64,000 bases of DNA from Sunxiuqinia sp. (GTDB taxonomy: Bacteria; Bacteroidota; Bacteroidia; Bacteroidales; Prolixibacteraceae). Both the position numbers and the translations under genes were made by a program. The notes beneath the pieces were generated by a model. The model was not told the DNA's origin and did not search any database. It worked only from the letters and a program-made list of their open reading frames with translations. Shown piece after piece: positions 13,899 through 17,072 of the stretch. The stretch's first letter is position 1, and each line of letters opens with the position of its first letter. The stretch spans positions 832 through 64,831 of the forward strand of contig JBBIHV010000004.1 in assembly GCA_037446835.1 (NCBI GenBank), read 5' to 3'.

Positions 13899-14702
13899 TT
13901 ACAAACCCTCCTTTAGCTTTTCTTTCAGCAGATAGAATCCGGCGCTATCCGGAATTGCACCTTTAAGGTCTTTATATTCACCGATGCGTTCCATCATTAT
14001 TTCGGCCCGTTCTTTCGATTCGGGATGGCTGCTGATCCAGTAAATCTGATGCGGAATGTTTTTGGTTTCATCTGAAAGCCGGTACAGGAAATTGGCAAAA
14101 GGTTCGGGATTAATGCCGGCTCTAATGAGGTAATCTACCGCTGTAAGGTCTGCTTCGGTTTCCAGCTTCCGGTCGTAAGCGCTCGACGACAATTGTTTGA
14201 GCACCGACTTCACCGTTTCAGAATTTCCATTTCCGGTAGAAATAGAAATCAGGACTGATAATCCGACTTCTTTAACCAGCTTATTCATCACATGGTTTTT
14301 CTCGATGTGCGCCAGTTCGTGGCACAAAACTCCGTACAATTCGGCTTCATTTTCACAGGCGGCGATTAATCCGGAATAAACCACCAAATGCTGGTTTGGC
14401 AAGGCAAACGCGTTGATTTCGTCTTTGCGCAGGATGTGCAATTTGATCTTGCTCCGGTCGATCGAGTTCTTTTCACAAATCCGGGTAAGCATCGAATCAA
14501 CCGGAGCCACCACCGACGGTGCAGTAATTTCAGTTTCCGATTTTTTAAGCAGATCCCAAAACAGGTCTCCTATTTTCACTTCGGTATTTTGTGTTGTTTG
14601 CCTGATGTTTAAGCGGCTCATCCAGTCAACCCGAGACAAGCCGAACCACACCACAGCAATTACCGATACCGTTATGACAAGCTCGAACAGAATTTTCTTC
14701 AT
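13899..14702 (-). CDS. M48-family zinc metalloprotease, membrane anchored
   Basis: INAFALP, HELAH (HExxH), ETEAD, SSHP; start ATG 14702 overlaps the upstream stop (TGATG). Confidence 0.92.
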   Translation of the reverse strand: MKKILFELVITVSVIAVVWFGLSRVDWMSRLNIRQTTQNTEVKIGDLFWDLLKKSETEITAPSVVAPVDSMLTRICEKNSIDRSKIKLHILRKDEINAFALPNQHLVVYSGLIAACENEAELYGVLCHELAHIEKNHVMNKLVKEVGLSVLISISTGNGNSETVKSVLKQLSSSAYDRKLETEADLTAVDYLIRAGINPEPFANFLYRLSDETKNIPHQIYWISSHPESKERAEIMMERIGEYKDLKGAIPDSAGFYLLKEKLKEGL

Positions 14703-15133
14703 CACGCTTTGCACATTAAATTGGTTAAACCGCCAATCACCCACCACTCCACGTGTTTGCCCTTGCGAGTGGCAATGGCCGTATAAATTGTCCCGACAAA
14801 CTCGATCAGGTTGAAAATAAAAATGGTCAGGATGTAGGCAATGTACTTCGAACTAATTGTTTCCGGGGTAAAAACAATGGAAACCGTCCACCAGAATCCG
14901 GCGCTATTGAATGGGATCAGGAAAAATTGTGACAGCAATGCCTGCGTGCAGTGCCACCGTACAAAATAGGTTCCTTTTCGGTTTCCCAAATAAAAAAACA
15001 GGGTGGCAATCAGGTTGATAATCGGCATGGGCAGTCCGCCCATAATGGCAACCATCGACATGACATAGCTATTCGACGCTTTCTCGGCCTCATGGTCGTC
15101 GGGTTCATACTGAAATTTAAGCGTTGCGATCAT
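14702..15133 (-). CDS. DUF4870-like membrane protein
   Basis: Three hydrophobic segments, FVRWHCTQALLSQ motif. Confidence 0.75.
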   Translation of the reverse strand: MIATLKFQYEPDDHEAEKASNSYVMSMVAIMGGLPMPIINLIATLFFYLGNRKGTYFVRWHCTQALLSQFFLIPFNSAGFWWTVSIVFTPETISSKYIAYILTIFIFNLIEFVGTIYTAIATRKGKHVEWWVIGGLTNLMCKA

Positions 15134-15540
15134 AATCCTTTATAAATGTTCCAAATCCAGTTCAATATAACCAGCAAAATAGCAGGAATGGCAATCCATT
15201 TCCGTTTCAGGAAAAGCTCGGTACGTTTATAAAACCTGAATAAAGTGTCTTTTTTAAGCAGTAAATCGAAAATTAGCCATCCTGGAGTGACAAGCAGAAT
15301 GGACATGATAATTAACCCGAACGGATTCCAGTAGATCGCACCCCAAATGTCGCCGTTCAGGATGGAAAGTACTGACCTTGTTGAGCCGCATGAAGGGCAG
15401 GGTATAGTTGTGATCCGCTTAAACAGGCAAATCCCGGGTTCGCCGGAATGAACGATAACTTTGCTGTAATTAATCAGAAGCCAAATATACCCTGCGGCAC
15501 AAGCCGTTGACAATATGACATACAACTTGTTCCTGCTCAT
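15130..15540 (-). CDS. DUF2752 membrane protein
   Basis: CLFKRITTIPCPSCGSTRS, WNPFG; start re-assigned to ATG 15540, 5 nt after the TM2 stop. Confidence 0.88.
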   Translation of the reverse strand: MSRNKLYVILSTACAAGYIWLLINYSKVIVHSGEPGICLFKRITTIPCPSCGSTRSVLSILNGDIWGAIYWNPFGLIIMSILLVTPGWLIFDLLLKKDTLFRFYKRTELFLKRKWIAIPAILLVILNWIWNIYKGL

Positions 15541-15545
15541 TGAAC

Positions 15546-15884
15546 CTAATAGACGAGTTGCTGTATTTTCTGCATATTTTTTTCGCGGGTCACGCCCATG
15601 ATAAGAAACCAATCGATAATAGTCCAGATGCCCAAGCCACCGCAGGTGAGCAGTTTGGCAATTCCCAATCCGGTGTCGCCAAGAATAAAGCGGTCGATTC
15701 CGAAATGGCCGGCCAGGATTGAAACGATTAGACTAATGGTGGGATCTTTTAACTGGACGCTCGAAATCATGGCCCATCTGGAGTCATCCATTGCAATCAG
15801 CCTATCGCGGAGGCCAGCAACCTGATAGCTCTCAAAATACTTTGCATTCGTCATGATAAACATGTCAACTTTTTGTGCTTCCAT
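15546..15884 (-). CDS. TM2 domain protein
   Basis: GHFGIDRFILG...KLLTCGGLGIWTIIDWFLI. Confidence 0.92.
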   Translation of the reverse strand: MEAQKVDMFIMTNAKYFESYQVAGLRDRLIAMDDSRWAMISSVQLKDPTISLIVSILAGHFGIDRFILGDTGLGIAKLLTCGGLGIWTIIDWFLIMGVTREKNMQKIQQLVY

Positions 15885-15904
15885 ACTTCACTTTTGTGTG
15901 TTTT

Positions 15905-15968
15905 TATCCTACTCGTCAGGCTTTTCGGTAACGCCCCGTTTTTATAGTGGTTCCTGAACTCCACGATT
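15905..15968 (-). ncRNA. Candidate cis-regulatory leader RNA upstream of the TM2 operon
   Basis: Minus strand GAAUCGUGGAGUUCAGGAACCAC-UAUAAAAA-CGGGGCGUUACCG-AAAAG-CCUGACGAGUAGG: three short stems in an AT-rich leader; identity not verified. Confidence 0.45.
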
Positions 15969-16174
15969 CTGTTAAATTATAACTATTTTCATCAAAAAAC
16001 AAAATTTTAAAACCAATTGAGTTGCAAAATCTCAGGCAAAAAATTCTGTTTTTATAAAAAAAACAGGAAAGTACCGTTTACTTGCACTTTCCTGAATTAG
16101 CTTTTCATAAATCGGAAAGAAATTCAACATCAATTGTTGCTGATTTTTTGGGATTCAGCCACTGGGCTGGATTA

Positions 16175-16834
16175 TTATTTTTGTTTTTTAAGCTTATTAT
16201 TTTTGTTTTTTAACTTTTTCAAAGCCTTTAGCAGCTTGTTTTTCAGGTCTTTGAGCTTACTTTTTTTCACCTCTTTCTTTTTCGCTTTTTTAACCTGCTT
16301 TTTAAGTTTCACAACCTTTGCTTCAGCTTTTTTGGCATTCTTCTTATCCGAATCAGGTTTTTTGTCCTTTTTCTTTTTGACTGTTTCTTTTCCGCTGTCC
16401 AAGTCCAACCCGGACTGAATGATTTGTTCTCCTTCAGATTTTTCGTTTTCGGCTGATTCCGAATTTTCTTTTCTCGGAGGGTTTTTCCTGACCTTTTTCC
16501 GTGTCGATTTTATTTCTTTTTTATTGTCATCATCAATCGTTTCAATTTCATTTACGTCCACCGATCCGCTTTCTAACCCTGGATGGGAAACCCCTTCAGC
16601 AATACTTTTATTACCGGCTGATTTTGCGTCCGGGGTATTGGTTTTTGGTACAGTTTTGTGCGATGATTTTCTTTTCGGCCTAGACAAGTTTTGTTTATGA
16701 ACGATTTCAGAAACTGGCAATCCAGTAACAGTTGCTAGCGGTTGTTCAGTGTCCAGATCAGCAGGTTCCGTTTTCAAATCATTCTGATTATCAACTAAAT
16801 GATCTTCATCAATTTTATTGTTTAAATCTTTCAT
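16175..16834 (-). CDS. Hypothetical low-complexity protein: acidic/disordered N-half, Lys-rich C-terminus
   Basis: 219 aa open frame; C-terminal 70 aa dominated by Lys. Confidence 0.65.
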   Translation of the reverse strand: MKDLNNKIDEDHLVDNQNDLKTEPADLDTEQPLATVTGLPVSEIVHKQNLSRPKRKSSHKTVPKTNTPDAKSAGNKSIAEGVSHPGLESGSVDVNEIETIDDDNKKEIKSTRKKVRKNPPRKENSESAENEKSEGEQIIQSGLDLDSGKETVKKKKDKKPDSDKKNAKKAEAKVVKLKKQVKKAKKKEVKKSKLKDLKNKLLKALKKLKNKNNKLKKQK

Positions 16835-17072
16835 GTTATTCTCTTTTAGAAGTTTTAACTAAGTTAGTGTTTAAAAAATTAAAAATCAATATGCTGAAGG
16901 TGAATAAAAATTAAATCTCAAAAATCAGGTACCTGTTTTTCGGAAACAGGGAGAAAACAAATTAGTCCTTTCGGTTTCATTAACTACAATTTTAATCTGT
17001 TTTGGTTATAATTTGTCACTTTAATTCGAAATTTAATTTTAGATCGTTATTTTTACGCCAAATTTTTAAAAT

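Follow-up and report, generated by a model that had tools for sequence, protein, structure and literature searches.

The minus-strand element at 15902..15969 of the window (the whole 64,000-nt stretch of Sunxiuqinia sp. DNA analysed here) is, with hardly any room for doubt, an authentic instance of the DUF805 RNA motif catalogued in Rfam as RF03081, and it was shown to form, in sense orientation, the cis-acting leader of a TM2-DUF2752-DUF4870-like-M48 operon. The element is thus real but already known, and it should be annotated as RF03081. The evidence for it consists of the match to the family model and of the comparison with relatives.

Identity of the leader and its transcription unit

Upon scanning the region 15000-17000 of the window against all Rfam families with cmscan, RF03081 was the sole significant match, scoring 78.8 bits (E 2.1e-14) against a gathering cut-off of 51.1 bits; model positions 1-68 of 68 were covered, the copy not being truncated. 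The same copy was recovered again in a whole-genome search and scored 82.4 bits with our own covariance model R1. Weak matches to PyrR, snR32, OxyS and CRISPR-DR9 in the same region were all far under their thresholds, and the alignment to PyrR covered a terminator hairpin only. The preliminary description had suggested that the leader is a structured cis-regulatory element akin to the orphan DUF805-type motifs of Bacteroidota, which the cmscan result bears out. It had also described a GC-richer island in an AT-rich leader, ending about 24 nt before the ATG; in agreement with this, the GC content was 51% in the motif core vs 22% in the leader just upstream (33% in the whole intergenic region), and 23 nt separate the invariant GAGUAGG box from the ATG at 15884.

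The features by which RF03081 is defined in sequence and structure, namely the hairpins P1 and P2, the GAGUAGG box and the position in a 5′ leader, were all present in the window copy, which also comes from the same phylum as the family. What differs is the name-giving association, as the gene downstream encodes a TM2 protein here and not a DUF805 protein. RF03081 belongs to clan CL00115 together with the DUF805b RNA (RF02914), whose 35-position model represents the motif's 3′ half (P2, A-run and GAGUAGG) and lacks P1, whereas P1 is present in the window element, which is scored as RF03081. The DUF805 RNA motif reportedly comes from the survey of Weinberg et al. in 2017. Our literature search for functional work on the motif retrieved no relevant study and no reported ligand, and DUF805 is not mentioned in the main text of that survey (PMC5737381).

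The motif is located in the intergenic region between a 219-aa gene (16834-16175) and the TM2 gene (15884-15546), both on the minus strand. On the same strand, the upstream gene is followed by a strong intrinsic terminator (16056..16094) with a 9-11 bp stem and then U8, for which the fold of 16094-16056 had an energy of -18.9 kcal/mol (z = -4.13, none of 200 shuffles being as stable). Between this terminator and the motif, a pattern search revealed a Bacteroidota-type promoter-like site, TTTG-N17-AAATTTTG (16000..16028, minus strand), with one mismatch at the first T; the consensus, TAnnTTTG or TAHHTTTG, and the spacing were those given in PMC6847099. This site predicts a transcript beginning near 15995, which leaves about 30 nt ahead of P1. 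A scan for sigma-70 promoters returned nothing near the motif, the sigma-70 model not being applicable to Bacteroidota. It was also noticed that the product of the 219-aa gene, which had no Pfam match, carries an extremely lysine-rich C-terminal third with KKxK repeats, reminiscent of the DNA-binding tails of histone-H1-like proteins.

Downstream of the motif, the order of genes on the minus strand indicates a tightly packed four-gene membrane operon headed by the element. The first gene (15546..15884) encodes a 112-aa TM2-domain membrane protein (Pfam PF05154, 57.7 bits); the genome has no other TM2 gene. The TM2 gene is followed 5 nt after its stop codon by a gene for a DUF2752 membrane protein (15130..15540; PF10825, 62.5 bits), the stop of which is overlapped by the start of a gene (14702..15133) for a 143-aa membrane protein that is weakly DUF4870-like (PF09685, 19 bits against a cut-off of 25). 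The last gene (13899..14696) encodes an M48-family metallopeptidase (PF01435, 87.3 bits). An upstream ORF or leader peptide beginning at an AUG in AUGAGUAGG was also considered; it was excluded because this AUG is not conserved, the position being U, C or A across members, and reads ACG in the window.

Structure and covariation of the motif

On the minus strand, positions 15975-15885 read ...GAAUC-GUGG-AGUUCAGGAA-CCAC-UAUAAAAA-CGG-GGC-GUUA-CCG-AAAA-GCC-UGAC-GAGUAGG, followed by 23 nt and the AUG. The Rfam consensus consists of two hairpins and an unpaired 3′ tail with GAGUAGG. P1 (15947..15964) is formed by GUGG (15964-15961) and CCAC (15950-15947) around the 10-nt loop AGUUCAGGAA, which corresponds to the 4-bp helix and the 10-nt loop beginning with AG and containing CAG in the family. 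P2 (15919..15935) pairs GGC (15935-15933) with GCC (15921-15919) around the 11-nt loop GUUACCGAAAA; the window sequence AAAAACGG-GGC-GUUACCGAAAA-GCC at 15943-15919 agrees with the consensus loop GNNACYGAAAA preceded by AAAACGG. The GAGUAGG box (15908..15914, minus strand) is unpaired in the Rfam consensus and nearly invariant in the model-based hits, and the invariant purine-rich single strands comprise AAACGGGG, CYGAAAAGCC and GAGUAGG. Thermodynamic folding of the leader gave an MFE of -17.1 kcal/mol (z = -0.24 vs shuffles) and an MFE structure that differs from the conserved one. Since the energy was no better than that of shuffles and the structure was not the conserved one, folding of the single sequence is uninformative here.

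Two sets of relatives were used for the comparison, 76 hits of model searches in 151 genomes from the same order (the model-based set) and 123 further instances from a pattern scan in which both helices were left free; pairs were counted over 75 relatives of the model-based set, and mutual information was analysed over 182 sequences. The outer pair of P1 was G-C in 60, A-U in 8 and G-U in 3 of the 75 relatives, and G-C in 114, A-U in 36 and U-A in 6 of the 182 sequences, in which it was the top mutual-information pair. The inner pair of P2 occurred in the 182 sequences as C-G (159), A-U (8) and U-A (7), and the outer pair as G-C (175) and A-U (3); changes on both sides were found in all three P2 pairs in the model-based set. 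Both P1 and P2 are therefore supported by compensatory changes. Beyond them, mutual information over the 182 sequences revealed no further covarying pairs; neither the P1 loop nor the GAGUAGG box took part in a covarying pseudoknot. G-U pairs were confined to the sense strand, and the orientation of the motif always followed that of the gene.

With regard to individual stems, the preliminary description had placed the first at GUGG/CCAC, which proved to be the conserved and covarying P1. It had taken CGG/CCG as the second stem and GGC/GCC as an alternative to it; the latter turned out to be the covarying P2, and CGG (15938-15936) with CCG (15928-15926), the second strand of which lies inside the P2 loop, is at most a pseudoknot stem (15926..15938, minus strand). 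This stem crosses P2 without sharing its bases, so it could form only as a pseudoknot. CGG/CCG was pairable in 92-94% of cells, variation being mainly from G-C to G-U (45 vs 21) with only 1-2 double changes; this pairability is compatible with a pseudoknot, but, both sides being nearly invariant, it lends weak support. A third hairpin, CCU-GACGAGU-AGG, had also been proposed. Its U-A pair is found in 28 of the 75 relatives only and its two C's belong to the 3′ strand of P2, and it is not conserved. As a whole, the earlier observation was accurate in the sequence, the GC island and P1, and it erred in the choice of the second stem and in the third hairpin.

Rare long forms of the motif (91-103 nt) are extended by a hairpin located between the A-run and the G-run; these are L153:867-959, L154:698-794, L154:2040-2137, L167:593-695 and L170:212-302. 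In several of them, pairing is possible between a CCCGA segment in the insertion and UCGGG in the invariant G-run.

Occurrence of the motif and its downstream genes

The preliminary description had pointed to conservation upstream of orthologous operons as a check. In the pattern scan, the motif was found immediately before a TM2 orthologue (66-76% identity) at five further loci of Bacteroidota, and P1 had undergone compensatory changes among them; the lack of conservation that would have refuted the leader was thus not observed. The sequence records of the five loci carry the labels Bacteroidales, Saccharicrinis, Salinivirgaceae and Bacteroidota. The whole four-gene operon was kept in four of the five, with DUF2752, the DUF4870-like gene and M48 following; orthologues of the DUF4870-like gene were found after DUF2752 in L070, L073, L078 and L102. 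When the six upstream regions were aligned, conservation was restricted to the motif, in which P1 switched between GUGG/CCAC and AUGG/CCAU. A unit of leader plus operon is thus conserved across several families of Bacteroidota and offers a clean chromosomal test case for an orphan RNA. Using the TM2 protein of the window as query, no counterpart was found in G077, the only genome of the same genus that was searched, and the TM2 operon may be accessory within the genus. The single copy of the motif in G077 is located before a lipoprotein gene.

In addition to the window copy, the genome has one more RF03081 copy (L002:1501-1567, plus strand, corresponding to G000:C68:12556-12622; 73.4 bits), making two. 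It lies 13 nt before the gene of a multi-pass membrane protein (195 aa) for which no Pfam family scored above the cut-off, and its P1 reads AUGG/CCAU, which is compensatory relative to the window copy; a gene orthologous to that of the 195-aa protein stands behind the same motif in another family of the order (L019). The DUF805b model RF02914 matched the 3′ half of this second copy at 28 bits. A separate short leader of the DUF805b type, without P1, was detected at L177:65-102 (minus strand, G000:C113; RF02914, 38.2 bits). About 25 nt after it begins an ORF starting with MKELEKNELMGVDGG, which resembles the leader of a double-glycine peptide precursor and within which the contig ends.

Of the 151 genomes sampled from the order, 69 contained the motif; a single genome had as many as 18 copies, and copies were often arranged in tandem, one before every gene. 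It also occurs in Chitinophagales, Flavobacteriales, Cytophagales and Saprospiraceae, in Ignavibacteria-type and Calditrichota MAGs, and, above the Rfam cut-off with 62-65 bits, in three genomes of Pseudomonas, namely Pseudomonas huaxiensis (L053), Pseudomonas sp. H3(2019) (L089) and P. chlororaphis (L092). The core sequence is almost invariant across the orders of Bacteroidota, these MAGs and the three Pseudomonas genomes. The Pseudomonas copies precede a protein of about 90 aa without a Pfam family, and between the motif and the ATG a weak AU hairpin carries a GGAG Shine-Dalgarno sequence in its loop.

One of the arrays, L153 (G009:C350:7600-14200), contains five copies in 6.6 kb, in which no terminator-like site was found; similar arrays are represented by loci L154-L163. 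It was also noticed that many array loci share extra conserved blocks upstream of the motif, e.g., ...gccaaagggctgaccacccaaagtgacag... and ...atgggcaagtttaaaaac..., which had no match to an Rfam family. No such blocks or cassette repeats were found in this window.

A gene for a DUF805 protein (PF05656) had no match in this genome, which is 95% complete, and was downstream in only one of 30 loci at the level of the order. Among 116 downstream genes at the level of the phylum, outer-membrane beta-barrels (about 9), TM2 (8), DUF805 (7) and SCO4226-like proteins (5) were followed by dozens of singletons, the commonest families TM2 and DUF805 each accounting for less than 10% and no family exceeding 7% of this sample; in three listings of downstream genes, 26-32 Pfam families were counted each among 30-59 genes. 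As DUF805 genes make up 7 of the 116 targets, the family name describes a minority of the members, and it is misleading in that TM2 is as frequent a target as DUF805. No theme of transport or biosynthesis hinting at a ligand emerged among 146 downstream genes. With a median length of 130 aa, the products of the downstream genes are small; a hydrophobic stretch at the N-terminus, such as a signal peptide, lipobox or TM helix, was seen in 69% of them, and exported or membrane proteins make up 69-74%. Two bacteriorhodopsin-like genes (PF01036) lie directly behind the motif in Saprospiraceae-type genomes (L039:1434-2147 and L122:3355-4068), and small cytoplasmic proteins, five SCO4226-like and two AHSA1/SRPBCC, are also encoded behind it. 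The presence of the bacteriorhodopsin-like, SCO4226-like and AHSA1/SRPBCC genes indicates that the set of targets is not purely one of the envelope.

Possible modes of action

The A-rich spacer between the motif and the start codon (15885..15907, minus strand) has, judging from base composition in 118 relatives, the character of an ordinary translation initiation region. In these relatives it is almost free of G and has A peaks at -3, -6 and -11 to -13, the same positions at which positive determinants of initiation have been reported for Flavobacterium johnsoniae (PMC6847099). The preference for A-3, A-6 and A-12/13 and the G-poor composition are shared by the initiation regions of Bacteroidia, which are Kozak-like and Shine-Dalgarno-free (PMC6847099, PMC7797042). 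Such determinants occur generically in all genes, whereas the DUF805 RNA is an extra structured module before only a small number of genes in each genome. Measured from GAGUAGG to the ATG, the distance had a median of 20 nt in 118 instances (interquartile range 18-22, 10th-90th percentile 15-25), compared with 23 nt in the window. No pairing of the spacer with the motif was predicted, motif-to-start pairing in the window being 0.01 per nucleotide, and the predicted accessibility of -18 to +10 was 0.61 with the real motif vs 0.62 with a shuffled one. Neither downstream of the motif nor by covariation was a riboswitch expression platform (terminator, conserved alternative pairing or start-site sequestration) found; the 23-nt spacer leaves no room for a terminator.

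The tight spacing, the lack of a terminator, the normal A pattern of the start region and the presence of one copy per cistron in arrays argue for action at the level of translation, and the motif probably acts at translation initiation of the first cistron. As to how, we tentatively prefer a portable initiation module, a reading to which we give somewhat less than an even chance. The compact fold, possibly with a small pseudoknot, would bind a conserved partner in the cell, either the small ribosomal subunit or a protein associated with it, where the 30S footprint has its upstream edge. As a Shine-Dalgarno-independent module, the leader would set the initiation efficiency of the first cistron, the three genes downstream in the operon would follow via translational coupling, and neither a terminator or attenuation nor sequestering of the start site by base pairing would be involved. 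A universal partner is suggested by the core being almost invariant across distant lineages, and a generic module, rather than a pathway-specific switch, by the extreme heterogeneity of the downstream genes, which are small and mostly have an N-terminal hydrophobic segment. Since the Pseudomonas copies persist beside a normal Shine-Dalgarno sequence, the motif would not merely substitute for one. Direct pairing with rRNA is unsupported because complementarity between the motif and 16S rRNA was not beyond chance; when the conserved boxes were compared with the 16S rRNA of a relative from the same order, the own genome having no assembled 16S, only two 7-mers were found, fewer than in shuffles. 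The Pseudomonas copies and the missing rRNA complementarity count against the proposal, as do two further observations. Few genes per genome have the leader (two here plus one DUF805b-type copy), which suits a signal-controlled regulon better than a general enhancer, and the invariant purine-rich core also resembles the ligand pockets of small riboswitches. The statement as a whole, joining the RF03081 identity, the cis leader and the partner-binding mechanism, we hold to be nearly, but not quite, an even bet.

Four other explanations were weighed against the initiation module. The leader could be a true riboswitch, in which the core of P2 and the G-run would bind a small molecule or ion, possibly a second messenger, and thereby alter translation of a scattered envelope and stress regulon. 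This is unlikely in our judgement, although it is the strongest of the four, as it would account for a near-invariant purine-rich core with short covarying stems across the phylum and beyond and for the small number of selected genes per genome, and the possible H-type pseudoknot of CGG/CYG with an A-rich strand would be in keeping with very small riboswitches. Heterogeneous regulons are also known for second-messenger riboswitches. The preQ1-I and similar small pseudoknot riboswitches consist of a hairpin, an A-rich strand and a short G/C stem, forming an H-type pseudoknot. The motif is like them in having a hairpin and then an A-rich strand, a short G/C stem, a tiny size and a place just upstream of the start region, whereas its gene set is incoherent, it does not sequester a Shine-Dalgarno sequence or start site, and it has no sequence similarity to them; by analogy, the resemblance may illustrate how the motif could work and does not imply membership. 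Against a riboswitch stand the absence of a conserved alternative pairing or expression platform, the lack of a transporter or biosynthesis signal among the 146 downstream genes, the fixed 20-nt spacing that keeps the start region free in any fold, and the lack of a reported ligand in the literature searched. A factor-binding initiation leader is favoured over a metabolite riboswitch because of the tight distance to the start codon and because neither a downstream terminator nor anti-start pairing was found.

A dedicated RNA-binding regulator protein or a trans-acting sRNA, co-ordinating envelope proteins through the motif as its binding site, would agree with the 69-74% of exported or membrane proteins downstream and with the conserved single-stranded boxes GAGUAGG and CGAAAAGCC, which suit a protein or seed pairing; the invariance of the motif, including that in Pseudomonas, would nevertheless need an equally conserved regulator, yet none is linked to the loci and no partner gene recurs beside the motif, which makes this possibility somewhat less probable than a riboswitch. 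The 5′ leader of ompA in Escherichia coli stabilises its mRNA, and a 5′-proximal hairpin and compact fold might likewise shield the transcript from decay that depends on the 5′ end. Many targets are indeed outer-membrane proteins, and in a subset of loci 9-12 nt separate the end of a -7 promoter box from P1 downstream of it, which would place the RNA start there a few nucleotides ahead of the hairpin. In the window, however, the RNA is predicted to begin about 30 nt ahead of P1, array copies are internal to a likely polycistronic RNA, and a stabiliser would need neither an invariant sequence nor a fixed distance to the AUG; we thus regard stabilisation as improbable. Least credible by far is an element acting as DNA (promoter, operator or recombination site) and not as RNA. 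The promoter-proximal intergenic location and the cassette-like repeats that accompany the motif in other genomes would be expected of it, but the window has no cassette repeats, the motif is without the inverted-repeat symmetry of an operator, compensatory changes maintain its RNA helices, its G-U pairs are found on the sense strand only, and its co-orientation with the gene and its spacing to the start codon are strict.

Of these readings, the portable initiation module is therefore the one favoured, and the collected data argue for action at translation initiation rather than for a pathway-specific riboswitch. More speculatively, and with little confidence, the DUF805 RNA might be a self-contained start module, recruiting ribosomes or sensing a signal, that is placed on small envelope and stress proteins throughout the Shine-Dalgarno-blind Bacteroidota, with the TM2-DUF2752-DUF4870-like-M48 operon as a core chromosomal target. 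If true, this would give the first functional handle on the bacterial TM2 and DUF2752 proteins, as members of one post-transcriptional regulon.
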